A stretch of DNA of 64,000 bases from Euglena gracilis (GCA_039621445.1 CP154954.1:28576417-28640416), one strand, 5' to 3'. Shown: positions 1 to 34,400, counted from the first letter of the stretch. The notes: a model not told the origin generated them from the sequence alone. A program made the numbers and translations.

Positions 1-631
1 TGCCAGTTGGAACACAAAGTCCTGGATTGCACCATGTCGCCGCGTGATGCCATTTGAGCTGCAGCATACAAGGTGATTACCCAGGTTGTCCATTGGCTTG
101 GTGCAGCGTGGGCACGTTGATCCCGTTGGTGGACAAACTGGTGCTCCCAGTGACCACTTTAGAAATCCTTGCGGCCCATGTTTGCGTTGGGGGAGTTCCT
201 TCGAGGATGGAGTTGGCAGAGGACAGGCACTCAGCAGTGTCTTTCGGTACTCCTCGGTCTGCCAGGCCCAGGGTGCGTCTGCCATTGCTGACAAACGTCA
301 CAATGCCGGATATACGTGCTGGGAGACGTTCCCGTGATGGGTCCCGAATTCCGAGTCCGCCATGACGCACGGGTAGGGTGGCCTGAGCCCATTGGTTGTC
401 ATCGATTGGGGATCCAACAATGTTGCTCATTGTGTTCCTGATTTCTTTGGTCAACAGAGCACATGCGTCATTTGCCTGCCCCAGTTCTGTTGCACGCATG
501 AGGTCATTAACTTTGCATGCATCTAGGCAGGTTCGTAAGAGGCAGAACTGAATATGGGCTTGCGGCAGGTTCAAAAGGGCCCGGCAAGTTCTGCACACCT
601 GTTGCACGTTCAGCCCACACTTCCCCCGCAA
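1..631 (-). pseudogene. Post-RT region and CCHC knuckle preceding the RLE (frameshifted, internal deletion near 120)
   Basis: QWAQATLPVRHGGLGIRDP in ORF 77..631; another frame gives CPRC...GNHLVCC...RRHGA. Collinear with the copy at 8700-9500 except for a missing block. Confidence 0.8.
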
Positions 632-2762
632 AGCCTCCGCTTTGTGGATGGCATACCGGGATTCCCAGGGCCCGTATACCAGAATTAGGGGAGTAATTCA
701 CGATTGGGACTGCACGAAGTGGGCTGTTTTGCGGCATTTCAGCACGATTGGCTTTTGTTGCTGCAGGGCCCCACGGGCGGCATTTTTTTGCGTTGAGGTG
801 TATGCCTAGTAGCGTCCCCTGTCGTTGAATTTCTGTAATTGCTGCATGTAATTGTGGGAGGGTTCCCAGCATGTGTCCATCATCCAAATACCACAATTGC
901 AGTGGCACCACGTCTTGCAAGGACTCGACGAGAGATTGCAACGCCAAGGCAAATCCGGCTGGGCCACAAGGGTCCCCTTGTTGTACGCCAGAGGCACTCC
1001 GAAGGTGTGATGACCCACAGAAGAGCGGGCTGTGTTCGGCGTAGCAACTCTCGAACCAAACGTACGCCTCCGGGCAACGTTTAGCCACTTCAGCAAGGAC
1101 TGTCTTTCTTTTTACGCAATTAAAAGCATTGCTGAAATCTACCTGTAACAAAGCCCAGGTGCTGTCTTGTTGCATGTGCAGGTGATTTACTTCTTGCTGC
1201 AGTCCCATAGCAATGAGTTCACATGCCCCCTGGACCCTTACACCGCATTGTAGTGGCTGCAGTTCTTTAAGGCGGTCCCTGATTTTGGGGTGCCTCATCA
1301 AATATTTGCCCACCAATCGGCGCAGGCATTCCCCAGCTGCAATTGGTCGCGTGCCGTCCTTCTTTGGGTCAGGAATGGGGTTGGTATTGCCAAGCTCAAG
1401 GTTTTCGCTTGGATTGCAGGGTTTTCGAAGAGGAGTCAAACGGGCACCAGCGAAAATCCATGCCGCAGAGTTGTGAATTCCGTTTGTCAAACATGTTCGG
1501 ACGAATTGGTCCAAAATTGTGAGGTGTTCTGATTGTGTCCCCAGGGGATCAGAGAGCATGTCTTTAAGATGATCTGGACGAAGTCCAGACGGTCCTGGTG
1601 AGGACTCCTTCGGGAAAGACATGACTGCTTTCCGTATTTCAATTAGGCGCTCCCTGGTTGCATCTTCACTGAGATCGAATTCGAGGCGAGGGAAGTCCGG
1701 AGGCAGATTTTGCCTTCCAGGTTGGGGTTCGGGAGGGTGCAAGGCAGCCAACCGTTCTAAGATTAGCGGTTCATCTGCATCTTGGATTCCATCAGAAGTC
1801 AGCATGCGGCAGGCTTTACTGACCGCCCCATGGCTGACCAGGCTTTGAACACGGTTGCACAATCTTTCTTGGCTTTCTGCATCGAAATTTTTTGTCTGAC
1901 TTCGTGTTCTCTTCTTTGGGTTTTGTGCATCGCGAATTTGGCGAGTCTCATCCCACGAATCTTCTGTGGACCGGTTGAGGTAGGCATTGGCTCTCTCAGT
2001 AATTTTCCGTCCAACTGCAGCCCAATGGCTTTTCCCGCTCCGCTTCAATGGAGCAAGCACAGCTTTTGGGAAGCACCAAAGTGCGTGTAGGGTCTCCCAT
2101 CCTGGCTTTGACACAAAGCGACCGAGGGTGCTGCAGAAGGCGAGCCCAACGTTTCGCAACGCTCCCCGTGGGATATGGACCAACGTGCCCCGAGTGTCTT
2201 GGGAAATTTCTTCCCAAGATGGCTGCATTGGTGGGCAAGGTTGCGAGAAGGGAGTAACTTGCAGCGTATCAGCGTTCGTCGAGGATTGCGCTGGTGCCGG
2301 AGCCACGGGGTGCTGCGGCCTTCGACCATTTTGGCACTCTTGCTCTTGCCCTTGTGGTGAGGACGGCACAAAATTCTCAAGCAACCCCTGGCCCTGCGGC
2401 GCACACCCGTGAATTTCGGAAATCGCTGAGCGCACCCGGGACTCTAGTTCGTCAATGACCATGATTTGTTCAGCTGCAGGTGCCCCGGGGCCCCCGTTCA
2501 AACTAGGAAACGGCATTATAGCCTGGGACAAAGTAGGCGAGAACAGCGGCGTCGAGTGCATTGGAAACCAAGATCCAAGGAGTGGTAGCTCCGTCGGCGG
2601 CACAGCAGAGGTCTGTGCGGCTGAGGCCATTTCAACGTCCTCCTGCTGGGGAGGGGGTTTCTGTGGGACCTGGGTTGCTTTCAATGTCGCCACAACTGGC
2701 AAGGCTTTTGCCCCTGCCACAACGGGGAGGACTGTACCCATACCGCGTTTTTTCTTGGTCAA
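507..2762 (-). CDS. Reverse transcriptase of non-LTR (CRE-clade-like) element; true frame probably enters near 2655 from the upstream 2A-bearing frame
   Basis: SPGPSGLRPDHL, RPIAAGECLRRLVGK, QVDFSNAFN, GVQQGDPCGP, WYLDDG, GIHLNAKKC. Confidence 0.92.
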   Translation of the reverse strand: MTKKKRGMGTVLPVVAGAKALPVVATLKATQVPQKPPPQQEDVEMASAAQTSAVPPTELPLLGSWFPMHSTPLFSPTLSQAIMPFPSLNGGPGAPAAEQIMVIDELESRVRSAISEIHGCAPQGQGLLENFVPSSPQGQEQECQNGRRPQHPVAPAPAQSSTNADTLQVTPFSQPCPPMQPSWEEISQDTRGTLVHIPRGALRNVGLAFCSTLGRFVSKPGWETLHALWCFPKAVLAPLKRSGKSHWAAVGRKITERANAYLNRSTEDSWDETRQIRDAQNPKKRTRSQTKNFDAESQERLCNRVQSLVSHGAVSKACRMLTSDGIQDADEPLILERLAALHPPEPQPGRQNLPPDFPRLEFDLSEDATRERLIEIRKAVMSFPKESSPGPSGLRPDHLKDMLSDPLGTQSEHLTILDQFVRTCLTNGIHNSAAWIFAGARLTPLRKPCNPSENLELGNTNPIPDPKKDGTRPIAAGECLRRLVGKYLMRHPKIRDRLKELQPLQCGVRVQGACELIAMGLQQEVNHLHMQQDSTWALLQVDFSNAFNCVKRKTVLAEVAKRCPEAYVWFESCYAEHSPLFCGSSHLRSASGVQQGDPCGPAGFALALQSLVESLQDVVPLQLWYLDDGHMLGTLPQLHAAITEIQRQGTLLGIHLNAKKCRPWGPAATKANRAEMPQNSPLRAVPIVNYSPNSGIRALGIPVCHPQSGGFAGEVWAERATGVQNLPGPFEPAASPYSVLPLTNLPRCMQS

Positions 2763-4937
2763 TCAGTTGCCGTACGTGGTTGGCGTGCCCTGGGGCCACA
2801 TTTGACAACTTAGAAGGCCCTGGGGCCATAGTGCAAGTTGGTCGTCAGCAATGGGGCCGGGTGCTAGGTCGCAGGGATAGGGGTCCTTCACGTGGGGTTA
2901 TCCGGTGAATAGGTCCTGGCTCAAGCTGAACGTCACCACAAAGTGTGACATCTTGGTGTGTGGGCCTCTCGGCTATGACAGCGTCGTTAGGGCTTATGTC
3001 ACCTTGTTGGTCACCTCGTTGGTCACCTCGTTGGTAGTTTGGTCGTCTTTGTGCTGTCCGTCGTGCCCTCCGGACGTGACGGTCAACTGAAACTACTGAC
3101 CTTGTCGGACGTAACAAGGCCATGATGCCCAGGATATCAACGGTGTGTACATTCAATGGGGAGAGGTCGGACGAGGAGGGCTCCGTTGGAGGTACTCTGG
3201 GGAAAGTGCCTCTCGGCCGGAGAACGTTGGGTAGTGTCATTAGGTGAATAGGGGGCAGGTAGAAGTGAAAGGCCTCGCCGATGTTTCATACTTCGGACGA
3301 TAAACAAGTCAGCAACCACATAATGGCATGCACACTCGATGGGGAGTCGTGACGTGGTGGTCGATGTGGCCATAGCCCTATGAGCACAAACAGAACTCCT
3401 CTCAAAACTTCCCAACATTCGGTGAGCTCATAGACGGTAGTGTCCTCAACCAGGACATCGGAAGGGAAGGCGTCTCGGAAAGTTTGAAGTTCTGCATCCA
3501 CCTCTTGAAGGCTCGCCAACAGTCTGTGCCAAATGAAGTTTTCTTGAAGTCCCCTGGAGACAGGGATTGTCGGTCTTTCCATGGTGGCCAGTCGGAGGTA
3601 GATGGGTCCTGGTTGTGTTTGGACGTCACCATGGGTGGTGATTCGTTCCCCTCTTCCAGTCGGCTGGTGTCTTTCTGAAAACTTTTCCCGGGTTTGTTCT
3701 ACGGTGTATCCTCGGCTTGTTACGGAGTGTACTTTTGCTGTCTCAGTAGATGGAAATACTGTGGCTGAAAAAACAGGGCAGGTTTCCCTGTGGTGCAGGC
3801 ACCAACCTGCCGAGGCAGTGATGGTTTCAATGTCACACAAAGTGCATTTCAGCCAGTATGTAGCTTTGGGAAGAAGTGAACGGGAGGAGCCATCGGGGCC
3901 TTGCCGCAATGGTATTTCGGCCTTGATCCGAAAGAAATCAGTCATGTTCATGGCAACAAGTTGGTCCAATAGATCCATGACTTCACCACAGGGTCCATTA
4001 ACTGCCGTCGGCGGGCCTGGATTGGTTTCCACATCACCCATTGTTGTCAGGGAATCACCTCGCCCCGTCTTCAGATATGCGTCTTCCGGCTTCTTCCCCC
4101 CGTGTGGGCCTGCAGAGCAGAGGTATATGTTGCCGACTGTTTCTGCCATGTGGAAATTTTTTGTGGCAGCACAAGAGTAATAGTCCGACAGGGAGTCATT
4201 TGAGTCTTCAAGATCGCTGGCGGTCCATACAGACGGGGAAAGACGATCAGCCAATCCAACCTCACACGCAAACTGTAACGGTCTGGGCATGTAATCCATC
4301 TGCCAAATTCTTGGGCAGTATCGCCAGGCAATGGGCAGGGTTGGTTCTCGGGAGGGTGTCAGCCTCTTCTGTGTCCTCGGGGGGGGGGGGACTGCTTCTG
4401 CTGCAGGCACCTTTTCTTTGATTTTTTGTGCGATAGCTCGGCGTACTTTTTCTATGTGCGACATGTCCACTCCCTCCTCACGTTGTTCCTCTGGTCGGTA
4501 TTGATGAAGAATCTGGGCGATTCTGATCCGTTCCAGGATGAGGTTCTTTTTTGGTGGGGGGGGGGCGACTGCACAACGTTTGGCGCTGCCAGTGGCAACG
4601 TGAGTTTCATGTCTGTGTGCACCATTTTTTGTGACTGCCGAATGTCCACTGTTCTGCCAATGTCGACCAACTTTTCCTGAATGTTGGCCAGTTTTCTGGC
4701 GACCATCTCGTGAAATAAAATGCCTCCTGCTTGCTGTCTCATGCGCCTTCTCCAAAAAAATTCTTCCCTGATGGACCGAAACTCTGGTTTTTCCCAAACT
4801 GGGACCCCTTCCAGGGAGGTGTTGGGTGGGGAGGCTGGTAAATCTGTTGCCTGGGGGGGGTCTTGCCATTGAAAGGGGCTGGGTTCCTCCTGCAGGATCA
4901 CTGTGCCCAGTTTTGCCCACTGTGTGCCATCAAACAT
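2632..4937 (-). pseudogene. N-terminal part of ORF2 polyprotein with Zn-finger-like motif and four 2A-like motifs
   Basis: ORFs 3286..4920, 2845..3240 and 2632..2829 share one frame, separated by single TGA codons. Likely ATG at 4937 (ccaccATG) with a shift in the G-run near 4560. CTLC..HHRETC motif. Confidence 0.7.
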
Positions 4938-4956
4938 GGTGGGTTTTGTTGGAATT

Positions 4957-6078
4957 TTAAAAATGCGAAATGGTGGGCCTGGCCCCCCCCCTCTTGCAGG
5001 GGGGGCTGATATTGGGGGGCTGGTGCTGAGATCTTTTGGGGTTGCATTTGGCTGGGGTTGACGATCCTCCTCTTTTGGGTGCGGGGGGGGGTTGTTTTGC
5101 AGACTCCTTTTGATTTGGAGTTGCCTTGGGATGAAATTCTTGATCCACTTGTTTTACTGGGTGAAGGTATTGTGTTGAATTGTCCCCTCTTTGGGGGGGA
5201 CTTTGTGAGACAAAAGGGAAAGCTGGGAAAGCTGCAGGCAGAAGAGAACATTGGAAGGCTGATGGTGATGCCAGTACCACATCTGGGATTAAGGGTGCTG
5301 GCAGGCCAGGGGTGTATAATGGTGTTGGGAGGGGGGGGACTTCTGTACTCTGGCCTGTGCTGAGAAAGGCTCTGAGGCTTCTGAAGAGTTCAGCCTCTCT
5401 CCTTCTCTGCTCTTCTTCTCTGATCCAATTCTTCCTCTGGTCATCTTCTCTGCTCCAGTTTGATTGCAGTGGTTGCTGAGATTGCTGGGGTTCACCCCAA
5501 AGGTTGGTCTGTGATGGAATGTACATTTGTATGATTGATGTGACAGATGGACATACTTGATTTCTACCCACTGGTGGGCATTGGAATGGGCTGTTCACTG
5601 GAATGCCCACTGATGGCCCTGACTGTGGAATGCCCACTGATGGGCTTGCTGTACAGGGGGGGCCCAGACTCACTTGCTGATGGAGCTGGGGCTGAGGAGA
5701 ACTCTGTTGAGATATATGATAACTGGGTCGACCTCTCTGCCATGGGGGCTTGTAATCTCTTCCAAACCTTCTCTGTAGGTACTCTTCATGCTCTTCCCTC
5801 TCTTGCCATGTCCTCTTCTTTCTCTGTGAGATGCTGTCTTGACTTTCTCTGTCACTATGTACAGGGCGGTCAGCAGTGAGTCGTTGTGCCACAGCAGTGG
5901 TTAGCACCGGCACCAACAGCGGTAACAACATCTTGGCCAGCAGCTCCAACTGTCCAGTGTCCACTGCAACAGTAGGTGTACTTGAAGGGTTGGTTGTGGT
6001 AGCAGCTTGGTTGACAAGGGGTGTATTGTCTTGAGTCTTGGGGCCTTCTGGAGGGCCATCCGGCCCCTTTGCAGCCAT
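4957..6078 (-). CDS. ORF1 of the non-LTR element, Gln/Pro-rich, function unknown
   Basis: ATG in ccaccATGg context 14 nt after the SL exon; open for about 373 codons. Confidence 0.7.
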   Translation of the reverse strand: MAAKGPDGPPEGPKTQDNTPLVNQAATTTNPSSTPTVAVDTGQLELLAKMLLPLLVPVLTTAVAQRLTADRPVHSDRESQDSISQRKKRTWQEREEHEEYLQRRFGRDYKPPWQRGRPSYHISQQSSPQPQLHQQVSLGPPCTASPSVGIPQSGPSVGIPVNSPFQCPPVGRNQVCPSVTSIIQMYIPSQTNLWGEPQQSQQPLQSNWSREDDQRKNWIREEEQRRREAELFRSLRAFLSTGQSTEVPPLPTPLYTPGLPAPLIPDVVLASPSAFQCSLLPAAFPAFPFVSQSPPQRGDNSTQYLHPVKQVDQEFHPKATPNQKESAKQPPPAPKRGGSSTPAKCNPKRSQHQPPNISPPCKRGGARPTISHF

Positions 6079-6092
6079 GGTGGTTATGCAGA

Positions 6093-6118
6093 CGAAAAAA
6101 AATAGACACTCAGAAAGT
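6093..6118 (-). other. Euglenid spliced-leader exon copy at the element 5' end
   Basis: Reverse complement reads ACTTTCTGAGTGTCTATTTTTTTTCG, matching the 26-nt Euglena SL exon as I recall it. Not followed by a GT intron. Confidence 0.9.
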
Positions 6119-6126
6119 CCTCCCAA

Positions 6127-6817
6127 CTTACCTTACCAACTGTCTAACTGACTTTTCTATTCCTAATTCGAACTTTTCGCCACTGGTCGGTGGATTCGGT
6201 TCGCCCCACCACCGTTCCCCTCTTCCAGACTTCCCCATTCGAACTTTTCACCCCGCAGGGCCCTGCAAGAGATGCGGGAGGGCCTATCGGTGACACTCAT
6301 GCGCCACTTGGCGCGACAGCTGGCAGCCAAGGACCGCGTGGAGGATGCCCTCCAACCATGGTAAGTCCCAGCCTCCACCGCAGACAACACCCAAGCCAAG
6401 CAAAGCCAAGACCAAAGCAACCCGAAGCGCGGAGGTTCACCAGGGAAACACCCCCACCCCCCACCAAAAGGCGGCCACCACAAAAAAAAAACCAGACCAA
6501 AAGAAACAAAAAAAAGACCCCGGTCGCCAAAAAAAAAACGCCTACACGCCAGGCCAAAGGCATCCGCCAAAAGGCGAAGGAGGGGAGTGGAGCCGGCAAA
6601 AGCAGCACACACAAAGGGTAGCCCGCCCGCCCTGGACTCCATAAAGCGAGACAGAGAGAGCACGCGCGACCCCACAAGCCGGCCGCAGACTGCTGGCTCA
6701 TGTGTTATGTCTCCACATTGATTGTGTTTTCGTCTTTGGGACAATTGGGATATCAAGAAAAACAAATTGGGAATCCGAGGATTTCAAGAAAAACAAAAGA
6801 ATATTCTGAGACGTCCA
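6127..6817 (+). repeat. Solo LTR of Gypsy family 3, interrupted by non-LTR insertions
   Basis: 6127-6178 and ~6684-6817 align to LTRs 43250-43454 and 50065-50271; ends gagacgtcCA. Confidence 0.85.
6259..6684 (+). mobile_element. 5'-truncated 3' end of a CRE-like element
   Basis: Encodes ALQEMREGLSVTLMRHLARQLAA..W*, similar to LSLTLAREVARQLAW of the copy at ~9880; ccgcag occurs on both sides. Confidence 0.6.
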
Positions 6818-8560: not shown

Positions 8561-8689
8561 GAACTTGGTATGTGCATAACTCTCACCCGCACAGGACTTC
8601 GGCTCGGAGTAATCCTCCTAGGCCGCTTGCTGCTATATACAAAGTTGGGAGGAGCGCCTCACCGGTGTCCGAAGGCGTGCCACCTGTTA

Positions 8690-10376
<1,687 letters not shown>

Positions 10377-14409: not shown

Positions 14410-16389
14410 CTACGGCCCACCGTCAATTTTAAGTTCGGACATTATGTCCATTTTCACTTTTTTCTCACGGCAATATTTCACAAACTCCCCACTGAAACGG
14501 TGAATGAAATTTCCAGCCGGTTCCCAGGTCTCCTCCCAGTCCTCATATCCGACCCACTTGGTCAAAAATTCCCATTTTCCATCTTTTCCTTTCCGGTGCT
14601 TTAGAATTTTTTCCACCTCCCACTTATCAGGTAATGCCTCTTCTTCTTTTTCGGTCCGTTTATAGTAAAAAAGAGGCACCCCCTTACCTTCAACTTGGGG
14701 TTCCCGATACTCCTTCAAAAAACTCCTATGAGCTTTTGTCTCCACCCCAGATTTCATCTCAATTACATAACTCCGTTCCCCTTCTCTACCCTTCACGACC
14801 CCAGGTCCCACCCACCTAGAGTCAAGCTTCTCACCCGACCCTTCGGGTCTCCTATACCAAACCGTCGTCCCCACCTTTAGGGGTTCCATTTCTTTCCTCC
14901 CCTTATTTATCCTTGCCACCTCCTCCTCATGCTTTTTGTTGAGTATCCTAGCCACCCTCCCATCAATGTCTTGCATCCTTCGGAAAAACTCCACCGAATC
15001 CTCACATTCTTTGGGTGGTTGGTAGGGTACCCCTGCCAATGGTCTTTCCCTTCCAGTCACAATTTCATATGGGCTCAATCCGCTTTCCCCTTTTACGTCA
15101 TGAATTCGGTCCAAAACGTGGGGTAAAGCTTCAACCCAATTAATTTTTTCCTCCACATACAATTTTCTCAACACCTCCATTACCTGTTGTCCGGTTCTCT
15201 CAACCCTCCCGTTTGCTTGGTGGTGGTATGCTTGGGAATACGCTTGCCTAATCCCCAAAAGCGCACACATGTTTTTCCACCAAGTGCTTGTGAAATGGCT
15301 CCCTTGGTCACTTGAGATGACCGAGGGAACCCCAAAAGGCCTCCACTGATTTTTCACCATTTCCTTAGCCAACTTGGCACCGGTTAATCCCTTGTCCTTG
15401 CATGCAACCCCCACAATCCAACCCGAATGCCTATCCACACAAAGGGCTAGGGTGTCGTACTCCCCCCCATCGTGTAAAACCCTTGGCATTCGAAACAATT
15501 CGATTGCAACACTTGTCATTAGTGCATGGGGTATGGGTGTTGACTCGATCGGTCCTTTCAAACTCTCCCCCCTCACACTCGCTTGGCATGTGGAACAATT
15601 TTTGCTGCAATTTTGGTTGAGTTGCTTTGCAGCCTTTTCATCAGCCCAAACAAAACGGATTGTCATGTGTTTCCAAACTTTTTCAGGGCCAACGTGCCCC
15701 AAAAACTCGTGATTTTCTTGAATCACCAAGGGTTGGAAACTTTCAGGCACACACAACTTTTCCTCGAAAAACAGTTGACCGTTCAAGACTTTATAGCTTT
15801 TGGGCCAAACTGAACCACCTTTGGTAGCCTCCCATTTTTCTTTCCATGTGGGGCATCGAGAATATGCTTCCCCCCAATCACGCTCCCATACGGGCTTAAT
15901 ATCCTTAGGGGTCGTACTTGGCAGGGCGTCCCCCACTTCCATACGAGTGTCCCCCCTCGAACTTTCAGCCGTCTCCGGGACAGGGGTCGTCTCCCCCCCC
16001 ACTTTCTCATCCCAAAAATGAACTCGTTTCTTTTCTTTCCTGGGCCCTTGTGAGTGGGTGTCCACAGGGGTGTCTTTTCCTCCTGGGTCTACCCCACCCT
16101 CGGTTCCCCTCCTTGTGCACTCTCCTTTTTCCTCCTCAGGTGTTACGTTTTTGCCACTACGGGTTGTCACCCCCCGTATCCAGGCATTACGTAAATTGGG
16201 CTGGTTTTTGATTCTTATCTCCAAACACTGTTTTTCCTCTTCTTTTTCCTCCCGGATAAAATTTTCCATTTCATCCTTGTCTTCGGCTGACCCGTGCTTA
16301 CTTATGTCCCTTAGGGCCTGTGAAGCTGGGTATGCCCACCGACTAAGGATATCGGCTATGGTGTTTTCTTTACCCAGGATATATCCCAC
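14410..16389 (-). CDS. RNase H C-terminus, linker, integrase and chromodomain
   Basis: GKENTIADILSR; HEFLGH..CSTC (HHCC); SSDQGSHF..ANGRVER; WVGP; WEVEKILKHR..EFLTKWVGYEDWEETWEP. Confidence 0.95.
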   Translation of the reverse strand: MGYILGKENTIADILSRWAYPASQALRDISKHGSAEDKDEMENFIREEKEEEKQCLEIRIKNQPNLRNAWIRGVTTRSGKNVTPEEEKGECTRRGTEGGVDPGGKDTPVDTHSQGPRKEKKRVHFWDEKVGGETTPVPETAESSRGDTRMEVGDALPSTTPKDIKPVWERDWGEAYSRCPTWKEKWEATKGGSVWPKSYKVLNGQLFFEEKLCVPESFQPLVIQENHEFLGHVGPEKVWKHMTIRFVWADEKAAKQLNQNCSKNCSTCQASVRGESLKGPIESTPIPHALMTSVAIELFRMPRVLHDGGEYDTLALCVDRHSGWIVGVACKDKGLTGAKLAKEMVKNQWRPFGVPSVISSDQGSHFTSTWWKNMCALLGIRQAYSQAYHHQANGRVERTGQQVMEVLRKLYVEEKINWVEALPHVLDRIHDVKGESGLSPYEIVTGRERPLAGVPYQPPKECEDSVEFFRRMQDIDGRVARILNKKHEEEVARINKGRKEMEPLKVGTTVWYRRPEGSGEKLDSRWVGPGVVKGREGERSYVIEMKSGVETKAHRSFLKEYREPQVEGKGVPLFYYKRTEKEEEALPDKWEVEKILKHRKGKDGKWEFLTKWVGYEDWEETWEPAGNFIHRFSGEFVKYCREKKVKMDIMSELKIDGGP

Positions 16390-18168
16390 CGCAAATCATA
16401 CTTGGAGAAAATTTGGTGCCATCTCGCCCTCCTCCCAACCGGACCACTGGGGGTGTCTAGGACTTCCCTTGTCCAAGACTCCAAACTTTGGTGGTCGGTT
16501 AAAACCAAAACGGGTTGCAATCCAATCCAACTCTCCCATTTTTGTAGTGCCAAAATTATGGCGTACGTCTCCAACTCCCTGGGGGTCCATTTTCTTTGCC
16601 CCTCGGTCAATTTTCGAGACATAAAAGCCACTGGCACAGTTTTTTTTCTCAATCACATCCTGGGCTGTGGGTCTTCCTCCCCCCTCCTTCATTTGCTCTA
16701 ACGTTGCCCCCACGGCGTACCCACTGGCATCAACCCTTAGCACAAAGGGTTTATCTGGGTCTACCCGTTGCAACATTAGGCCCGAACACAACCTTTTTTT
16801 CAGCTCCTCAAAAGCTTTTAAATCCTCCCCATCAAATTCCACAGGTTTTCGACTTCCTTTCTTTCCCACCTCCCTGGGGACTTTCAACTTGTCTTGCAAT
16901 TGGGCAGCTACTTCCGCATACATGTGAATGTATGCATTGTAATAATTTGTGAATCCCAAAAAGGCTCTCAAAGCCGTAATTGTTTTTGGAACCTCCCACT
17001 TTTCGATCGCTCGTAACTTACCCGGTGCAGGCCTCCTAGTCCCGTTTCCTAAAATCTGTCCACAAAATTCGACCTCCTCAACGAAAAGTTTGGCTTTGAA
17101 TTCATCAGCCACCAAAAGTTCTGTTTTCAGCACCTCCAACACCCTCCTCAAATCTTTTTCGTGTGCCCCCACCAGGTCCTCCCCTTCCCCGACCGTTGTC
17201 CCCACCAGTATATCATCTATGTACCCTGTGGCGATATCCCTTACTGGTGTCAAACGGTCGTCGATCATTTGCTGAAATTGCTGGGGGGCATTTGTCAAAC
17301 CCATTACATTCACCCTCCACTGAAAAATGCCTTTGGGGGTGAAACAACACGTTATGGGTCGACTTTCTGGGTGTAAAGGTTGTTGGTGAAAAGCTTGCTT
17401 CAAATCGATGATCGAAAACATTTGGTTTGCACCATGTTTGACCAAAATGTCTTCAATTTTGGGTAGGGGGTAGTTGCATCGCCTTGTTTGGCTGTTTGGG
17501 CCCCTGAGGTCCACCACCCCCCTCCAAGGAAAATCGTTGGATTTTTTTGGAACTGGAAAAGTCTGGGACAGCCATTCTGAATTTTTGGCTGTGGCTGGCT
17601 CAATGTATTTTTTGTCAAGCCAGTCTTGTGTGATTTTTTCAAGTGCCTCTTTCCGCTCACCGTGCATGAAAAAAGGCTTCTGTCTGGATGGTTTTGCCCC
17701 CTCCTTCAGCGGTATGTATGCATAACCATATTGTCCTCTTTCGGGGGGGTCTGGAAATGGCGATGACCGAAATACCGTCCCCCTGTAATCTTGCAAAACT
17801 TGTTCCCTCAACTTAACCACCCGTTCCTCCTCTTTTTTGTCCTCCCCCTCCCTTGCAATTATCATTCGGTTGATAACTTGCACCGGGGGGTCACTTCCCT
17901 CCAAATTTGTGGCAACCTCCCCCAGGTCCTCATCGCTCAAAAATTGAAATTCCTGGTCCAACCCTTCCAAAGGCAAACAAAGACCAAGTTTTTGCAACCC
18001 AAACGAAGACCCGTCCGCCACAGTCACATTGTCCACTGAAAAATTTGTGTCATCCCTGAATTTTTGCGGACCCCACCGTCTTTCAACACCCCGCAAAAAA
18101 ATCAGGTCGGGGCTGTCTTTCACCAACGCCTTGTGGTGTGGAAAAATTCCCAATTTTGCTTCTGCCAA
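16356..18168 (-). CDS. Gypsy reverse transcriptase and RNase H (frameshifts near 16645 and 16390)
   Basis: WRGVVDLRGPN, IDLKQAFHQ, MGLTNAP, YIDDIL, FLGFTNYY, VDASGYAVGATL; RELETYAII..TDHQSL in ORF 16356..16652. Confidence 0.95.
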
Positions 18169-18558
18169 CCATGGATAAGAAAGAATGGCATCAACTTTAA
18201 TGTTTGCCTCATAAAATTAAAATTCGTATTCCACACACTCAATTTCCCTTTCCTCATTCCAGTTTTGTTGAAGGATCATTTTCACCTTTGCACATCTGCT
18301 CCCCCCCGCCAAAGTTTGCCCATTGGCAGTTTCAAACCTTAACGGGTCCTTAGCAGGATACATTAGGTGGTCCCCTATCAACCCTTGTCGAATGAGGTTT
18401 GCCTCCGCCCCCGTGTCAATCAAAATTCTGGCCGTTTTTTCCTCCCCATTTGCCAACTTGATCTGGGTTTTTAACAGCAGTTGTCTGTCCTCCCCAAGTT
18501 TCTTCGATCCTCCCCGAGTTTTCGTCCCCCTCAACATTCTTTTTTTCAGCCGCACCAA
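18169..18558 (-). CDS. Aspartic protease (one in-frame TAA at 18217-18219)
   Basis: ILIDTGAEANLI; DAILSYPW follows the stop in the same frame as RT. Confidence 0.9.
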
Positions 18559-18594
18559 TTTTTTCTTCCCTGGGGTTGCCCCCCCCTGGGAGGG

Positions 18595-20271
18595 TTACCT
18601 TCTATCGATCAACAAGGCCCACACCCCCCAACGGGTACCCCTCAAAATCCTCCCATCAGCCTCAAACAACTTTGTCCCCTTGGGAAAATAAATCTTTTTG
18701 ACAGCCATAGCCACCAGATTTTTCACCCACCTCCTATTCCAGTCTGGGCATATGCAAATCGCCCGACAATTGGAATTTTGCAATTTTTCAGCCACCTCAG
18801 GCCACAAAGTCCAGGGGGGGTTCATCCACAACGTTTCCTCCGCCCCCCAATCCTTTTTCATGGCATCATCATCCTCCCCGTAAAACTTTTCACACCTGGT
18901 ATTTTGGCTGGTTGCAAAACAATCCCGTTCCGCCTTAACCCGAAATTCCTTCTCAATTTCCTCCATACAAACTTTCCTAACAGCATAATCCTCCCTACGA
19001 TATCCGCTTTTTCGTTCCAACACGGTTAACAAATACTCCACCAGTTGTTTGGGCATCCTCCATTTTTTCTGGGTGCCAACTGTCATTCCATATCCTCCCA
19101 ACTTTTCTCGGTGACTCCTCCCTCCAGGAATCAAATTCGGGCAGGTCTGGCCATCACAAAGTTTGCTTTGTAGCTTGCTCAGATTTTCGCTCCCCCAGAT
19201 TCGGGTGGGCTTTTGATATCCCCAATCTGAAAACTGACAATAATCAACATCGACAAAAGTCAGATTTTGAACACAGGGTCTTTTCCGCAAAAGTCCATGA
19301 CGGGGATTTTCAATCCACCACAATTTTGGCTTGAAATATTCGACAATCTCCAAAGTTTTTTTGACCAGCCGATCTGCCCCCTCCAAATTTCTGACTCCCA
19401 ATGTTTTGGCCAAGCTATATTCTGTACAGGGCACCCCCGCAGCGATGATCTGAAAATATCCGGGGGGGTACCTCCAATATCTCCACTCCAAAATATTTGT
19501 ACAGTGGGTTGGGTTAAATCTGGGGTTTATGTCCACTGACACAACCTTAAACCCCTGCTCTCTCAGGCAATCCCCAACCGAGCCTTTACCGCAAAAAAGG
19601 TCTAAAGCTCTTTTCTTTACGGAAGGCTGTGCACGATCCCTTATGGGATCTGATTTTTTACAGATTTGGGCCGAGTCACAGATTTGCACGTCACGCACAC
19701 ACACACCCGACACACTGGACACACCTTGTGCAGAGCTCTCCTGGGATGGCAGATTTTTCATCGTGGTTTCACTCGCACGAGAGTTTTCTTGCCACCTGGG
19801 ATTTGCGTAGGTCAAGTCAAGTGGAGTATACGCGAGAAGGAAACCTACGCAATCGTGCTTATACTCCAGAAATTCCGCAGCTGGGTTTCCTTTCCCCCTT
19901 CCTTTGCCTTTGCCTTTTCCACCGTCCTGGCCCTTTCCCCTAGACCAGTCATTTCCATTGTTTCCTTTCCCCCAAGAATTTTTTCCTTTGCCCTTTCCTT
20001 TGCCTTTGCCTTTGCCACCACCAGACTGTGAATCAAAATTCTGTTGATTTGAGTTCCACCACTGATTTCCCTGAAAATTGGCATTGGCATTGGAATTCCA
20101 CCCAGAATCGTTTCTCCATCCACCCCCATTGCCAAATTGAGATTGCTGGGGGGGTGGCAATGACTGTGATCGAACCACTGGCACTGGATTTTGCACGGGG
20201 GGGTTCACGTTTGCATTGGTCGCAGGAGCTGCCACCTGTGAATCTGATTTTCCAACGGACGGTTTTGCCAC
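18595..20271 (-). CDS. Gag C-terminal GK-rich tail fused to C5-cytosine DNA methyltransferase (~19027-19611) and N6-adenine-type methyltransferase (~18598-18995)
   Basis: C5: ALDLFCGKG (I), VDI (II), GVPC (IV), IENP (VI), QKPTRIW (VIII-like). N6: DCFA..N..DAM..W..WMNPPW..ICPDW. Confidence 0.9.
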   Translation of the reverse strand: MAKPSVGKSDSQVAAPATNANVNPPVQNPVPVVRSQSLPPPQQSQFGNGGGWRNDSGWNSNANANFQGNQWWNSNQQNFDSQSGGGKGKGKGKGKGKNSWGKGNNGNDWSRGKGQDGGKGKGKGRGKGNPAAEFLEYKHDCVGFLLAYTPLDLTYANPRWQENSRASETTMKNLPSQESSAQGVSSVSGVCVRDVQICDSAQICKKSDPIRDRAQPSVKKRALDLFCGKGSVGDCLREQGFKVVSVDINPRFNPTHCTNILEWRYWRYPPGYFQIIAAGVPCTEYSLAKTLGVRNLEGADRLVKKTLEIVEYFKPKLWWIENPRHGLLRKRPCVQNLTFVDVDYCQFSDWGYQKPTRIWGSENLSKLQSKLCDGQTCPNLIPGGRSHREKLGGYGMTVGTQKKWRMPKQLVEYLLTVLERKSGYRREDYAVRKVCMEEIEKEFRVKAERDCFATSQNTRCEKFYGEDDDAMKKDWGAEETLWMNPPWTLWPEVAEKLQNSNCRAICICPDWNRRWVKNLVAMAVKKIYFPKGTKLFEADGRILRGTRWGVWALLIDRR

Positions 20272-23200
20272 CGTTTCGACCCCTTGGCTGACCGTGTTGG
20301 GGAGGGTGTCCTGGACCCCTTGGCCCGATCTGCCTTAGCAGACCTGGCCCTCCGGTTTCCAAATGCATTTGGCTCCCTGGAACTGTGTATCATGTCTTGA
20401 GAATCCCTGGAAGACAATTTTCGCTCAACAAAACGGAAAATTTCTTCAACTCCCATTTTTGGCTGTTCCTCCACAATTTTGATCCTTTTATCCGTGCCTG
20501 TGATTGGTTTCCCACTGACCTCTTTCAGTTTGTCGCAAATCGTAGTGTTGGGCAAAAAGACTTCGAACTCCAGCGGTGAAACTTTCGAAACCTTGCAGGG
20601 CTTTTCCCCAGTGACACGTTCCACAGCACAAATAATGTTTTCCTCGGTTGCAGGCACTCCAGGGTACATTTTGACTTTCGGTCCACATGTTGATTTCCTT
20701 TCCTCCTCATCGGCGACCCAATGCAAAATGAAATTTGGCAGTTTTCCCTTGACCAGTCTTTCTGCCTCATCGTCAGTGGCGCTTTTCACCTGTCTCCAGG
20801 CTATTCTGAAATTTATGACAAAATCTCGCCATTCCTGTACGGTAATTTTCCCTTGGTTCACGAGGTTCACATCATACCATTTTTTTCTGGCACACTCGGA
20901 TTGAGTTCCAGCATATTTCCCCTCAAGCCTGTCAAATTCCTCCTCGAAAGATGTTTTTCCGTTCAATTCCAGTCGGAATTGCAATTCCTTTTTATTTGTG
21001 TCGTCCAGCGTCATTGCAAAAAGCTGAAGCTTGAGTGAATCAGACATATGTCCATTTTGCAAAATAACCAACGTCCTGAAATATTGATCCCAATCCCGCA
21101 CAAAGGACGACCAGTCTTTTGGCTGTCCAGAAAAATTTGGAGCTACCAGGTTTTTCATCAATTGATGCGTTGCCACTGCATTTGATGAAACCAGCCCTGC
21201 ACCTGCAGGCACTGCCCCCACAGGTCGTGCACAAACCTGCCTGACATGTGTCGCATGTGATCCTGGTTCAGCGTATTCATAACCCTCAATTTTAACCGGA
21301 TTTTTCTCAATCGCAGGTAAATCGTTGTAACCAAAAAGATCAAACTCCTCGATTTCTGAATTTCCAGCTGATTTTTCTCCCGTTTCCTTTGTCAGATCCA
21401 CCGTCGCAGATTTGGCAGATTCAGCTTGCTGATTTTTCATCACCAAAAACTCAGCGTGAAATAAATCCAGCTTTTGTTGCAATTTTTTCCGCTCCTGCTG
21501 TTCTTTTCGAAGTTCAACGCACTGCTGTTGCAGTAAAACTCCAACCTGCTGTTTCATCGAGTTTTCCATTTCAGCCCGAACTTTTTCAAACTGCCCCTCC
21601 CTTTCACTCAGCCTCAACCTTTCCTGCAACATTTCACTGATAATGACCTCCAAATTCTTTCTCGTTTGCAGCCCCAACTCCCTTTGCACCTCCAACCGAA
21701 TTGTTTCCTCACTCTTGTTAATCAGGTCACAGACTTTCTCAATGGGAAAATCTTTCCGACCCAGAAAATTCTCCAACCTCCCCAAACGATCATTCAGAGC
21801 TTTGCTCTCTCGCTCCAGGGACTGTGAAAATTCCTTCAATTTCTCAGCCTGTGCCTGAAAATTGGCACACTCAGTCTCCCCCAAACCTTTGCATTGCTGA
21901 AAAATGATCCCAAAACGTCCCTCCAGATCAGAGCTTAGCTCACCAACTGCAGATTTGACCTGATTAACAGCAATTTCCTGCTGTTTTTCCTTCTCCCCCA
22001 CTTGTTGCACCACCATGTGCATCTCCCCCACAGATTTTTCCAAAAACGACAGCTTCTGAGAAAAATCCCTCTCATTTTTTCTCAACCCCTCAACCTGGGC
22101 CTCAAAAAACGTGTTTACTCCATCCTCCACTTTCTTCACTTTTTCAGCAAACTGCCGTTCCATTTCCACACTCAACAAATGCCTTTGGCATTGGGCCAGA
22201 TTTTGCACCATTTCACCATTTTTCTGAAACTGCAAAAGCAAGTCGTTTACGGTTGAACTCAGTTCAGCCTGAATTTCACGTTTCACCATGGCAATGTGAT
22301 CAGCCACTCGCTGATCATGCATGCCCAATGCCTCATTGACCAGATTCAATGCCTGCCCATTTGACATGGCCAATGCCTGATTTAGCCTGTTTTCTGCCTC
22401 ACCCACCAGAATTTCAGCCATTTTTTCAGGATTTTTTCCTTCCTGCACCAAAAGCCTGCCATGTAAACATTCAATTTTACAACTGATTTCTTCACCCCAA
22501 TTGTTCCAATCATCATCAGATTGGCCATAGCCCGATTCCATTTCCACATCATGCTGATTTTCAGGGTTTTCGGACCCAGTTTCTGCAGAAAAACTAGTAT
22601 TTGGCTGTAAATTTTGTGGCTGGGTCTGTGAAAAATCTGGCTGAATTGGTCGAAAAACCTGGGCTGGGCCTGTGTTTGAAGACATTGTTAACGTTGGCTG
22701 AAAAACCTGCCCACTCATCTGGGATGGCCCCATGATTGCTGGAACAGATGACCCAGCCGAAAACTGCTGGGCTGGCTGAAAAACCTGTGAAGTCATCTGG
22801 GCTGGCCCCATGATTGCTGAAACAGATGACCCAGCCGAAAACTGCTGGGCTGGCTGAAAAACCTGTGAAGTCATCTGGGCTGGCCCCATGATTGCTGAAA
22901 CAGATGACTCAGCCGAAAACTGCTGAGCTGGCTGAAAAACCTGCAGCTGGGCTGCAGCTGGCTGTGCTGACTGCGTTTCTGAACTCTGTGTTAACAGCAA
23001 TGGTTCTGGCTGGGCTGTTAAACACAAAATTTTTTGTTCTGGCCCTGGGCTGCTGTCTCGTGACGACACAGAAATTCGCTGAAAACCTGAAAAATTTACT
23101 GGCCACATGCCAGCAGCTTTCATCCTTTGCATAACCATTTGCTGAATAATTGCGTTTTCAGCCTGTTTTTCTTCCTCTGTTTCGCTTTCATAAGCTGGGG

Positions 23201-23774
23201 GGTCTGATTCGTCGTCACTGCCATGCAGTGGAATCAGCTGTAAATTTTCTGGCCCTGCCACTGTGATGGGCCTTATGCATGTAATTAACCCCCTCTCCGA
23301 ATCAGAATCAGATTCTGATTCCTGTGTCGATTCTGAAAATCCTGAAGCCGATAAAGTTTCTGCAGCCTGAAAATTGTTTTCTGCCACAGATTCCATCATG
23401 ATTTGCAATGATGCCACAGGTTCTGAAAACTGGGCTGCAGAAAATTCAGTTTCCTTTTCGTTCTGAAAACAGCTTTCTGCCAAAGATCTCAGAAAATTTT
23501 CATCACAACCTGAAATTCGGACAGATCGGCCGGGAAACGAGCAGATTTCTGCAGATTCTTGTGAAAATTCACAGACCACTGGGTTGGTGAAACTGTCCTC
23601 GTGTACCATTCTGCTGGCACAGCCACCAGAACAAATCTCTGTGACCGTGTCGACCGTCTCTGAAAAATTTTCTTCTGACTGGGTCTGTGAAACAACCTTT
23701 GCTTGTGATGTCAGCCGAATCTGAAAACTTTGCACTGATTCTGCTGGCTGAGCCAGCGGAACAAATCTCAGCAA
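20205..23774 (-). CDS. Large Gag-like protein (26-aa repeats, coiled coil, capsid-like region)
   Basis: Position after PBS; APNFSGQPKDWSSFVRDWDQY; 78-bp repeats at ~22695-22940. True start probably the ATG at the LTR/PBS junction. Confidence 0.8.
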   Translation of the reverse strand: MLRFVPLAQPAESVQSFQIRLTSQAKVVSQTQSEENFSETVDTVTEICSGGCASRMVHEDSFTNPVVCEFSQESAEICSFPGRSVRISGCDENFLRSLAESCFQNEKETEFSAAQFSEPVASLQIMMESVAENNFQAAETLSASGFSESTQESESDSDSERGLITCIRPITVAGPENLQLIPLHGSDDESDPPAYESETEEEKQAENAIIQQMVMQRMKAAGMWPVNFSGFQRISVSSRDSSPGPEQKILCLTAQPEPLLLTQSSETQSAQPAAAQLQVFQPAQQFSAESSVSAIMGPAQMTSQVFQPAQQFSAGSSVSAIMGPAQMTSQVFQPAQQFSAGSSVPAIMGPSQMSGQVFQPTLTMSSNTGPAQVFRPIQPDFSQTQPQNLQPNTSFSAETGSENPENQHDVEMESGYGQSDDDWNNWGEEISCKIECLHGRLLVQEGKNPEKMAEILVGEAENRLNQALAMSNGQALNLVNEALGMHDQRVADHIAMVKREIQAELSSTVNDLLLQFQKNGEMVQNLAQCQRHLLSVEMERQFAEKVKKVEDGVNTFFEAQVEGLRKNERDFSQKLSFLEKSVGEMHMVVQQVGEKEKQQEIAVNQVKSAVGELSSDLEGRFGIIFQQCKGLGETECANFQAQAEKLKEFSQSLERESKALNDRLGRLENFLGRKDFPIEKVCDLINKSEETIRLEVQRELGLQTRKNLEVIISEMLQERLRLSEREGQFEKVRAEMENSMKQQVGVLLQQQCVELRKEQQERKKLQQKLDLFHAEFLVMKNQQAESAKSATVDLTKETGEKSAGNSEIEEFDLFGYNDLPAIEKNPVKIEGYEYAEPGSHATHVRQVCARPVGAVPAGAGLVSSNAVATHQLMKNLVAPNFSGQPKDWSSFVRDWDQYFRTLVILQNGHMSDSLKLQLFAMTLDDTNKKELQFRLELNGKTSFEEEFDRLEGKYAGTQSECARKKWYDVNLVNQGKITVQEWRDFVINFRIAWRQVKSATDDEAERLVKGKLPNFILHWVADEEERKSTCGPKVKMYPGVPATEENIICAVERVTGEKPCKVSKVSPLEFEVFLPNTTICDKLKEVSGKPITGTDKRIKIVEEQPKMGVEEIFRFVERKLSSRDSQDMIHSSREPNAFGNRRARSAKADRAKGSRTPSPTRSAKGSKRWQNRPLENQIHRWQLLRPMQT

Positions 23775-23824
23775 TAACGTTCACCGAATCTGAAAAAACC
23801 TCACTGACGAAGTCAGTGAGCCGA

Positions 23825-31400: not shown

Positions 31401-34400
31401 CGGACCCCCCCAGGACCCCCCCAGGACCCCCCCAGGCCCCCCCAGGACCCCCCCAACCCCCCCCAGGACCCCCCCAGGACCCCCCCAGGACCCCCCCAGG
31501 CCCCCCCCAGGACCCCCCCAGGACCCCCCCAGGACCCCCCCAGGACCACCTCAGGACCCCCAGCGAGTCCTACCAAAACCAAATCAAAAGAAACTAACAA
31601 AACCCCTGTTTCACGACAGGCTGACCCTGTGTAGGGTGGACGGGTGATGACTCATTTGGGACGCACAGCCATTCTCCAATTCATACGTTGCAGTGTGCCG
31701 CACTCGTGCTGCTTGTCGTCGTTGAACTCAGCTTCCACTGGCAAGCAGCGCGCCATGAACATCACACACCATGAGTGGTGGTGCTATTGTTCGTGGACCA
31801 CCCGTCCGGGACAAGGCTGTCACGAGGCCTCGACAGCATGGCCTCGCCCGCCTCCTCCACAAACACGCTGCCGGACAGCCGGGACATCCAGTCCTGCCAC
31901 CCCAGCAGGGCCAAGGAGATGGTTCGCTGGTACTACGACGGCGGTCTTCCGGGACTGATCAGTCGCTCCAGGTGCATCAGCTCCCGTGGATCCGGAGCAT
32001 AGCTTGGAGGTGCCCCCATCCCCGTCCGGTTTTGAACCCGTGTCCCTCGCATGGGCACCGCAGCCGGGGACCACTTGGCCAGGGGGCGGGGGCAATGGTT
32101 GTATGTGCCGTTCACTCCCCTTTCCGCCCCGGGCGGCGGTGGTGCCGTGCTTGTTGCGTCAGAAAGTAAGCAGGCCAGAAAACTCAGCTTAATCATAATC
32201 CGGGTCCCGGCTGTTGCGGCAGACCCGTGCGAATTCGGCCTGGAAGCCCTCCCGGCCCGCCCGTCTGACCACCTTGGTCCCGGCAGGACAGGTGCCGAGA
32301 CAGAAGAAACACCACTCCTCGGCGTCGCACAGGCCCCGCCACACGCCACAGTACCCACTGACCGTGGAGTTCCGGGCGCCTTCGGCGCCCGCTACCGGGG
32401 GGGGCTCCCGCCCCCCCCGGACCCCCCCAGGCTTCAAAAAAACCTCATTGTGCAGCAAAATTTTTGCCAAAAAGGAGCAGGACCGCCCCCCAACAACCCA
32501 CGGATGCTCACTCTGGCCCCGGGAGGGCAGGTGCCGAGTAAGGCAGAGAAAACACCACTCCTCGGCGTCGCACGTGCCCCCCCGCACGCCACAGTACCCA
32601 CTGACCGTGGAGTTCCGCGCGCCTTCGGCGCCCGCTACCGGGCGGGGCTCCCCCCCCCCCCCCCGCCCCCCCGGGTTTCAAAATAACCTCATATTGTCCT
32701 GCAAAATTTTTGCCAAAAAGTAGCAGGACACCCACAGGGACCACCCCATGACCATCCCAGGACCCCCCCAACACCCCCCCAGGACCCCCCCAAGACCCCC
32801 CCCAGGACCCCCCCAACGCCCCCCCAGGACCCCCCCAGGACCCCCCAGGACCCCCCCAACGCCCCCCCAGGACCCCCCCAGGACCCCCCCAGGACCACCC
32901 CAGGCCCCCCCCCACCCCCCCCCAGGACCCCCCCCAGGACTCCCCCAGGACCCCCCCAGGACCCCCCCAGGACCCCCCCAGGACCCCCCAGGACTGAGTC
33001 CTGGGGGGGAAAACTGGCCATAAGTGTTCAGTGTTCCTCTTGTTTGCCTGCCACATTCCCCATCCCAACGAGAATTCCAAGTAGTCAATAGTCTGATTCA
33101 GAAAAGAACATTTGCTCAATTTGATTCTCACTTGGTTCTTTCTGCAAACTTCAAACCTCTTTTCCAAAAGATGCAAATGGTCCTCCTCAGAGTTTGCACG
33201 AACCCCTGTGTCATCAAAAAAAGAAGCCAGGTGTCCATCTTTCAAAATCTCTCTTACCCTCAAATCCGTTTTGCACTGGGAGGTTAGGATTTCCATCAAC
33301 TCCTGAAAGATCCCTGGGGCATTCATCAACCCAAACATCATATTTTTGGACGAAAACACCTCCCTGAAGGAATGCAAAATGCAGACAAATTTGCTGATCT
33401 TTTTGTGATTGGGATTTGCTAATACCCACTCCTCATGTCCAGGGTACTTTTAAACCGACACTTGGCCAAACTTTCAATCAGAATTTCCATGTTTGGCAAA
33501 AAACCTGCATGTGCTTTGCTTCTGGAATTCAATTTTCCATAATTAATGACCATCGTTCTGGTACTTGACCCTTTTTTGTCCACCAAAAATGTGGGGCTGC
33601 ACACCTGGGGAATTTCACCAAAGGGGAATTGCTCAATCAACCCTGACTTTAGCAATTCTTCACACTGAAGGTCTAATTCTTTTTCATCCTCCTGGGGCAT
33701 GTGCCAACACTTTTGCCTTAGGTGTTTCCCTTCCCATTCAGGTTTCAGCTCAATGTCCATCAAAACAGGCAGGGGGGAAGACTCACAAATTGTGGGCAAT
33801 CGTCCAAAAACATCAGAAAGGTTCACCAAAAGCTCATACAAGATGGGGTGGTCTCTGACTTTCTCAACTTCCTTCTCAAATTATCCACTCAGATTCTCAG
33901 TAAACATTTTGCTGCCTTTTTCATCAGCCTTTTTCTGAGCCTCCAAAGTCCAAATCTTTCATGTAAAACTTGGGAAATGCTTTTGAGTTCATCCATCTTG
34001 ATTGTTGCCTTGAGATTCTTCACAGGTTTTGCAAACCGAACATCTTCCACAGGCTGGGACAGCTCACCTCCACATCTTTTCTCACCTCCTGAAAAAGACT
34101 TAGCTCACTTTCAATGTCCTTTGTCAATTCAGCAAAAAATTGATGTTTTCATGCTCACTCATCGGTTCAAACACCGCCACCACCACGTTGTCCAACGATT
34201 CTTTCACCTTTTTTTCTGATTCCGTGGGGGGAACACTCTCCAAAGGAAAACTTGGACTTTCAAAAACTTGCTTGTCTGCAGGTGGTTTGGCAGGTTGGTG
34301 TGCCTGCTGCTGCTGGGGGACGTCGGGAACCTCTGGGAAGTCAAATTGAATTTCATCCTCCACTGTGGGGTGCTTCCTGATCTCACCTCTCAGTTCATCC

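Follow-up and report, generated by a model that had tools for sequence, protein, structure and literature searches.

Serial 2A-like motifs upstream of the reverse transcriptase in a spliced-leader-bearing retrotransposon family of Euglena gracilis point to a divided polyprotein

The CRE clade of the trypanosomatids, with CRE1/2, SLACS and CZAR, comprises euglenozoan retrotransposons lacking long terminal repeats (non-LTR), of the restriction-like endonuclease (RLE) type, that are linked to the spliced-leader (SL) sequence; they insert inside SL RNA genes and split the SL exon. A 2A-like (StopGo) sequence was reportedly found by Heras in 2006 in a different element, L1Tc. In the accessible parts of two papers, 2A is attributed to non-LTR clades with an apurinic/apyrimidinic endonuclease (APE), and RLE (“REL-endo”) elements are described as having only one open reading frame (ORF), with 2A reported for the APE type alone (Odon 2013, PMC3708506; PMC3894237). 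Here we analysed a 64,000-nucleotide stretch of the Euglena gracilis genome (GCA_039621445.1, CP154954.1:28576417-28640416), which we call the window. At its positions 1-6118, the minus strand carries a dead and 3'-cut member of a multi-copy family of RLE-type non-LTR retrotransposons, in which four 2A-like motifs lie upstream of the reverse transcriptase (RT). Judging from these motifs and their context, we consider it quite probable that the family encodes several small proteins together with an RT-CCHC-RLE enzyme as one polyprotein, divided by ribosome skipping at 2A sites.

The four peptides (Table 1) lie where the initial annotation of this DNA had placed them, and a minus-strand reading together with a six-frame motif scan put all of them in one minus-strand frame. 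It had also been proposed that two of the peptides fit D(V/I)ExNPGP and two are variants: motifs 1 and 4 do fit this C-terminal core of the class A 2A/StopGo peptides, and motifs 2 and 3 depart from it, with motif 3 also having no GRG stem. Across the six-frame translation of the 64 kb, the looser pattern GD[VI]xx[NQE]PGP gave four matches, all within the upstream region of the element, compared with 0.0016 matches per window expected from composition and one match in total over 300 dinucleotide-preserving shuffles. The strict pattern D[VI]ExNPGP matched twice in the window and not once in 300 shuffles. With four matches observed against 0.0016 expected, and with the shuffles almost empty, a chance origin of the motifs was ruled out. 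The residues shared by the motifs are written with different synonymous codons, GRG as GGG CGA GGT, GGA AGA GGG and GGC AGG GGC, and PGP as CCA GGC CCG, CCA GGA CCC, CCA GGA CCT and CCA GGT CCC; the likeness is therefore one of peptides and does not reflect a recent DNA duplication.

Searches of metagenome and genome collections recovered 35 related proteins, 23 with the RT ORF as the query and 12 by phmmer with window 3289-4929, the upstream ORF, as the query, the latter including another copy of the same element, P0024. A motif census counted 45 motifs in 18 of these 35 relatives. Their common form is (T)GRGxxLL(S/T)CGD(V/I)ExNPGP, and that of P0019 and P0020 is W(V/I)xxLxxxGD(V/I)ExNPGP. 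The sites of these two proteins resemble the chimeric class A/B 2A peptides described in the available portion of the preprint 10.64898/2026.09.24.754024.

Relatives found with the RT query are 43-51% identical to the window RT, and seven of the 23 proteins carry 2A motifs; the four long proteins closest to the window are all among these seven. Three motifs occur together with a full RT-CCHC-RLE in P0017 (1849 aa), in P0018 (1736 aa) and in P0019 (1613 aa); P0006 also has three, in an ORF cut within the RT, while P0020 has four and P0023 two. Intact relative ORFs, 1613-1849 aa in length, place three to four motifs upstream of RT-CCHC-RLE, and in every one of the seven motif-bearing proteins the last motif precedes the conserved N-terminal extension of the RT, at a distance of ~30 to 210 residues in the six that were measured (P0006, P0008, P0017, P0018, P0019 and P0026). 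Ten of the 12 phmmer proteins (all except P0024 and P0031; within P0025-P0035) are arrays of one to four motifs, in which further off-pattern 2A-like sites are visible beyond those counted. Since the relatives are colinear with the window by tblastn, the motifs and the RT downstream of them belong to one element.

Within the single ORF of the intact relatives, the 2A sites not only precede the RT but also bracket Pfam domains. SLBP_RNA_bind, which binds the histone hairpin RNA, lies between sites in P0017, P0019 and P0032, and a Dam domain does so in P0017 and P0018. In the PDB, human SLBP is matched by P0017 at E 4e-6. Our literature search found no paper linking SLBP domains with retrotransposon ORF1 function. 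The window itself carries a different module between motifs 1 and 2. At least ten relatives contain homologous segments, all of them flanked by 2A at both ends. The invariant columns of their alignment (A3, mean column identity 31%) are the first P, a GP, the C-x2-C-x14-H-x3-C residues and, from the 2A sites, GRG, GD and PG. An AlphaFold model of this CCHC module has a confident alpha-beta-beta-beta-alpha-alpha core (pLDDT 85-95 over approximately residues 11-90). Foldseek returned no match to the model at E 0.001 or better, with several double-stranded RNA-binding domains and zinc ribbons among the weak matches; the best VIA-align Z was only 4.3, on spliceosomal and TUT zinc-finger proteins, and an ESM Atlas look-up gave only scores of 0.85 or lower, to unnamed clusters. 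The module is probably a small zinc-binding protein, possibly one that binds RNA. The two remaining tracts of the window, 2959-3603 and 2719-2910, have no relatives besides P0024, which was likewise the only match of a protein search with the segment 2632-3657, read through with TGA as X.

In the window copy, the frame of the motifs is broken by TGA codons at 3286-3288 and 2845-2847 and terminates at 2632-2634, and the RT ORF (507-2762) lies in a different frame. Other copies were sought in sequencing runs. The stretch is contained in 20 of the 24 listed runs, 19 of which share one organism label and the twentieth of which is a metatranscriptome, and the contigs of four runs were aligned to window 1-6300 at ≥85% likeness. 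Run X1 alone placed 6144 contigs on this interval, which identifies the element as a multi-copy family. GC is inserted behind position 2654 in 28256 of 45712 units of depth in X1 (62%, 4 contigs), in 146 of 146 in X8 (1 contig) and in 2.4 of 4.8 in X18. By frame arithmetic, these two extra bases bring motif 4 and the RT ORF into one frame in most other copies; the shift near 2655, which the initial annotation had suggested checking against a family consensus, vanishes there.

Other breaks are repaired in a similar way. CT inserted behind 588 in other copies joins the RT frame to the next frame, and in some copies the 10-base run at 4556-4565, which reads C10 on the minus and G10 on the plus strand, is two bases shorter, joining the second and third upstream frames, which are also joined in P0024. 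The first upstream frame shift must fall in 4960-5153, an interval with homopolymer runs of 7-9 bases. In all, the upstream coding region at 4379-5662 contains nine homopolymers of 7-12 bases, eight of them C on the minus strand. Because the shift at 4556 falls in one of these, and that in 4960-5153 perhaps in another, some of the apparent damage may stem from errors in the assembly. Near the 3' side, P0017 residues 1402-1556 match window 607-149 and residues 1623-1681 match 165-1 by tblastn, with ~67 aa missing; together with loose contig ends on both sides of 170/171, this gap shows an internal deletion at that point. The copies also vary in length by 12 nt at 2998. One contig from a different copy (X8 record 30) spans 4914-6117 and reaches the 5' end of the SL, from which it follows that the repeated unit starts with the SL. 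Contigs of the metatranscriptome X18 and of the presumed RNA run X15 lie on the element at 95-99% likeness; DNA carry-over is possible, and they were not counted as expression. When metagenome contigs were scanned, neither window 2848-3285 nor P0024 matched a locus, and these searches yielded no second copy extending across the two TGA codons.

The assignment to the RLE type, made in the initial annotation, was borne out. A family profile built from six RT-RLE relatives and compared with solved structures reached R2 proteins at E 1.5e-22 in two stretches, one in the RT and one in the CCHC-RLE (i-Evalue 4e-4), and reached L1 ORF2p more weakly and in the RT only. Neither the window ORFs (E up to 0.1) nor eight relatives (E up to 0.01) gave an APE match (Exo_endo_phos), and this absence together with the match to the R2 CCHC-RLE supports the RLE type. 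The RT of the window copy matches RVT_1 (PF00078) at E 3.4e-13. Its endonuclease is not visible because the window ends right after the CCHC knuckle; downstream of RT and CCHC, the RLE is seen in the relatives and in a second, 5'-truncated copy in the window, where it occupies 9311-9796 with the signatures CPGC..H..C, RPGD, VDVTV and K. That copy is followed by A11 and then a (CA)n array of ~50 repeats (~10060-10150), and this A11 + (CA)n (10023-10150, plus strand) is possibly a subfamily tail or a microsatellite target. The family resembles R2 (PDB 9nl3, 9dou, 8gh6) in its order of RT, CCHC knuckle and PD-(D/E)xK-like endonuclease, but R2 is rDNA-specific and has no 2A array, and the relation is distant, as P0017, used as a lone query, fails to match R2 at E 0.01. 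Pfam detected no N-terminal zinc-finger or Myb DNA-binding region in the window ORFs and eight relatives, and no domain at all in the N-terminal P/Q/S-rich region.

At its 5' end, the copy carries an exact 26-nt SL, which matches once in the window and not at all in 100 shuffles. The same sequence is printed as the invariant SL of Euglena gracilis mRNAs in the available part of PMC6242988 and serves as an SL primer in that of PMC5654406. Since the exact SL is joined to the 5' untranslated region (UTR) of the element, the retrotransposed RNA appears to have been trans-spliced. The CRE clade, named in the initial annotation, is a candidate assignment for the element. CRE elements interrupt the SL exon, whereas here the complete SL is joined directly to the 5' UTR; judged by this 5' junction, the 3' one lying outside the window, trans-splicing of the element RNA fits the arrangement better than insertion inside an SL gene. 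The sequence upstream of the SL is an unrelated repeat and not recognisably an SL gene, and Rfam and tRNA scans of the window found no RNA gene. This short repeat adjoins the 5' end of the element at 6127-6181 and 6683-6800, split by a 500-bp piece (6182-6682) of a very abundant repeat that is also present at 10322-10375. The adjoining repeat recurs at 36581-36750, 43267-43437 and 50086-50254, ~6.7 kb apart.

We propose the following course of expression for an intact member of the family. The element RNA would receive the host SL and, so capped, would be read by ribosomes from a single AUG through one long ORF. At each 2A site the ribosome would release the chain after ...NPG and resume at P. 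The N-terminal P/Q-rich protein would be produced first, followed by one or more small accessory proteins (the CCHC module in the window, SLBP-like and Dam-like proteins in relatives) and finally by the RT-CCHC-RLE enzyme, so that no upstream product would be made in a smaller amount than the RT. In a host whose mRNAs are SL-capped and translated from their first AUG, an RNA-binding partner, helpers and RT would have to share one ORF of the full-length RNA, because the 5' part would be lost at any internal SL acceptor; a related argument for APE-type elements is made by Luke and colleagues in the accessible text of PMC3894237. In the subfamily of the window probably only sites 1 and 4 act, motifs 2 and 3 having decayed, in which case the stretch between motifs 1 and 4 would emerge as one protein.

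Several observations weigh against a functional 2A-divided polyprotein. A literature passage citing Sharma 2012 names the E and N of the core as critical positions for 2A, and motifs 2 and 3 deviate at exactly these positions; with both residues replaced, these two motifs are probably inactive. The polyprotein proposed in the initial annotation probably holds at the level of the family, whose arrays share one ORF with RT-CCHC-RLE, but not for motifs 2 and 3 of the window, which probably do not skip. The deviation of motif 2 is not private to the window copy, since the motif is identical in P0024, a 90%-identical copy; P0030 keeps a canonical cousin of it, GRGERITTDGDVEQNPGP. Motif 1 reads NPGL in P0024. 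The window copy cannot express the product, as it is broken by two TGA codons, by no fewer than four frame shifts and by a deletion inside the element, and the 40 of 419 base differences between copies that were listed include none at the two TGA codons, which neither shows nor excludes their loss elsewhere. Furthermore, 2A arrays are not universal in the wider clade, because P0001 and P0002 (43-48% identical in the RT) have no motif in their called ORFs, and motifs are likewise missing from P0012, P0021 and P0022, which are more distant. Finally, in the available portion of a 2026 preprint (PMC13405545), most of the tested retrotransposon 2A-like peptides lowered protein abundance and did not skip cleanly.

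This last observation is central to a reading in which the motifs are mainly translational attenuators, with release at NPG, little restart and, as a result, a low dose of RT-RLE. The same preprint text gives reduced abundance for 59-70% of the tested ORF1p- and ORF2p-associated 2A-like peptides, and the accessible part of PMC11512398 describes picornavirus 2A sequences that terminate without detectable re-initiation. We nevertheless regard attenuation as an unlikely main role: the RT-RLE lies downstream of every site, therefore transposition needs translation to read on, and folded SLBP-like, Dam-like and CCHC domains with sites on both sides fit a separation of proteins. The two roles do not exclude each other. 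It is much less probable still that in this lineage the motifs survive as evolutionary relics that no longer serve a role, in a polyprotein that stays whole or is cut otherwise. Two of the four window motifs are degenerate, one of them in P0024 as well, where motif 1 has also lost its final P, and protease domain searches gave no match, although none of them excludes a protease. A relic would hardly be expected to recur 45 times across 18 relatives and to keep its core invariant between flanks that are only ~31% identical, and the synonymous codon differences between the window motifs and the common frame of motif 4 and RT in most copies also speak against it.

We also considered that the upstream part might be an endogenous viral element, a piece of the polyprotein of an RNA virus that lies by chance beside an unrelated long interspersed nuclear element (LINE). 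The form GRGxxLL(S/T)CGDVExNPGP is reminiscent of T2A, the 2A of an insect virus. No RNA-dependent RNA polymerase (RdRp), capsid or other Pfam domain was found in the upstream ORFs, however, and the intact relatives hold arrays and RT-RLE in one continuous ORF that is colinear with the window. Other copies share the whole unit from the SL on, with contigs spanning 4914-6117. Given the continuous ORF of the relatives and the unit shared by other copies, we rejected this origin, which we consider scarcely credible.

The family, read as encoding a 2A-divided polyprotein, invites comparison with elements and viruses of related design. With L1Tc/Ingi it shares the non-LTR type, a D(V/I)ExNPGP motif in frame upstream of the RT, a host among the Euglenozoa and SL trans-spliced mRNAs. 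L1Tc/Ingi, however, have an APE and a single 2A near the N-terminus of ORF2p, whereas the euglenid family has an RLE, three to five sites and bracketed accessory proteins. The closest analogue in design would be the multi-2A region of some picornaviruses. In the available part of PMC11512398, aalivirus and DERSV have serial 2A sites with tracts of ~50-150 aa that resemble acquired accessory modules, upstream of the replication proteins. These are RNA viruses with an RdRp and proteases, in contrast to a chromosomal retrotransposon with RT-RLE; in addition, the picornavirus tracts between 2A sites are described in that text as lacking database matches, whereas some of those in the euglenid relatives are recognisable as SLBP-like or Dam-like.

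Recent surveys have widened the known distribution of 2A. A 2025 survey, in its accessible part, counts at most three 2A instances per eukaryotic gene, and the available text of PMC13405545 includes 2A in ORF2p-like proteins, among them Dualen/RandI and a Symbiodinium protein. The available text of 10.64898/2026.09.24.754024 describes 2A in 580 RT-bearing contigs, ~79% of them non-LTR-like, in a distributed arrangement that suggests polyprotein processing; this text gives no endonuclease type, module content or host mechanism, and its contigs may include the euglenid family. Our literature search found no description of an RLE-type element in which serial 2A sites bound SLBP-like, Dam-like and CCHC modules, nor of one that is SL-capped, although supplementary lists may hold such sequences.

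Until recently, 2A in retrotransposons meant a single N-terminal site in an APE-type element, and the euglenid family would add an RLE-type element with a virus-like, serially divided polyprotein that has recognisable accessory domains between its sites. Such an arrangement suggests how a LINE with no ORF1 could obtain both an RNA-binding partner and other helpers from a single mRNA that is capped and trans-spliced. It also links the 2A sites of L1Tc/Ingi in kinetoplastids to those of a second, unrelated type of euglenozoan retrotransposon. The dozens of natural 2A variants, including canonical and degenerate pairs of one site, could be used to test sequence rules for StopGo. A broader generalisation, to which we give somewhat less than even weight, is that RLE-type LINEs of euglenids and other protists may encode an SL-capped modular StopGo polyprotein, in which cassettes of an accessory protein (an SLBP-like RNA binder, a Dam-like methyltransferase or a CCHC module) plus 2A are gained, lost and shuffled much as in the multi-2A picornaviruses. 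If this were true, 2A would enable a LINE to take up additional genes in hosts whose mRNAs are all monocistronic, and such elements could be a source or a recipient of moving viral 2A cassettes.

Table 1. Features of the retrotransposon copy and of other retroelements, in window coordinates.
Feature	Position	Strand	Remarks
26-nt Euglena gracilis SL, exact	6093..6118	minus	5' end of copy
Likely start codon, context ACCACCATGG	6076..6078	minus	14 nt after SL; MAAKG at 6064-6078
N-terminal P/Q/S-rich region	4066..6075	minus	Three frames: 4957-6132, 4452-5153, 3286-4929
2A motif 1, GRGDSLTTMGDVETNPGP	4012-4065	minus	Canonical core DVETNPGP
Conserved small CCHC module, 118 aa	3658..4011	minus	2A motifs on both sides; GP(S)G; C-x2-C-x14-H-x3-C at ~3778-3846
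2A motif 2, GRGERITTHGDVQTQPGP	3604-3657	minus	Variant core DVQTQPGP, with Q for both E and N
215-aa segment	2959..3603	minus	In-frame TGA 3286-3288; GDQR tandem repeat near 2998
2A motif 3, HQDVTLCGDVQLEPGP	2911-2958	minus	Variant core DVQLEPGP, with Q for E and E for N
64-aa short segment	2719..2910	minus	In-frame TGA 2845-2847
2A motif 4, GRGKSLASCGDIESNPGP	2665-2718	minus	Canonical core DIESNPGP, directly upstream of RT protein
2-base deletion site, private or in a minority of copies	2654..2655	minus	2 bases restore motif 4/RT frame
N-terminal extension and RT	507..2664	minus	RVT_1 ~777-1367; YLDD 879-890
Thumb/linker, shifted frame	77..697	minus	2-base deletion at 588; internal deletion at 170/171
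CCHC knuckle (61-114) and RRH (34-42) preceding RLE	1..165	minus	Element runs off window
Second, 5'-truncated copy, related subfamily	8663..9990	plus	Thumb, CCHC, RLE
C5 DNA methylase and Dam-like domain	18595-20334	minus	LTR/chromovirus-like element
RT and RNase H	16396-18216	minus	LTR/chromovirus-like element
Integrase and chromodomain	14410-16395	minus	LTR/chromovirus-like element

The window as a whole is largely a mosaic of retroelements. An LTR/chromovirus-like element lies at 14410-23780 on the minus strand and resembles the “EpiLTR” elements of Euglena gracilis and Cymbomonas as they are described in the available part of 10.64898/2026.05.21.726589. On the plus strand, an ORF at 54773-56785 matches RVT_1 (E 2.8e-14) and, weakly, Dam (E 0.0011). 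Further RT and protease ORFs are located at 32508-33449 and 44542-45567.

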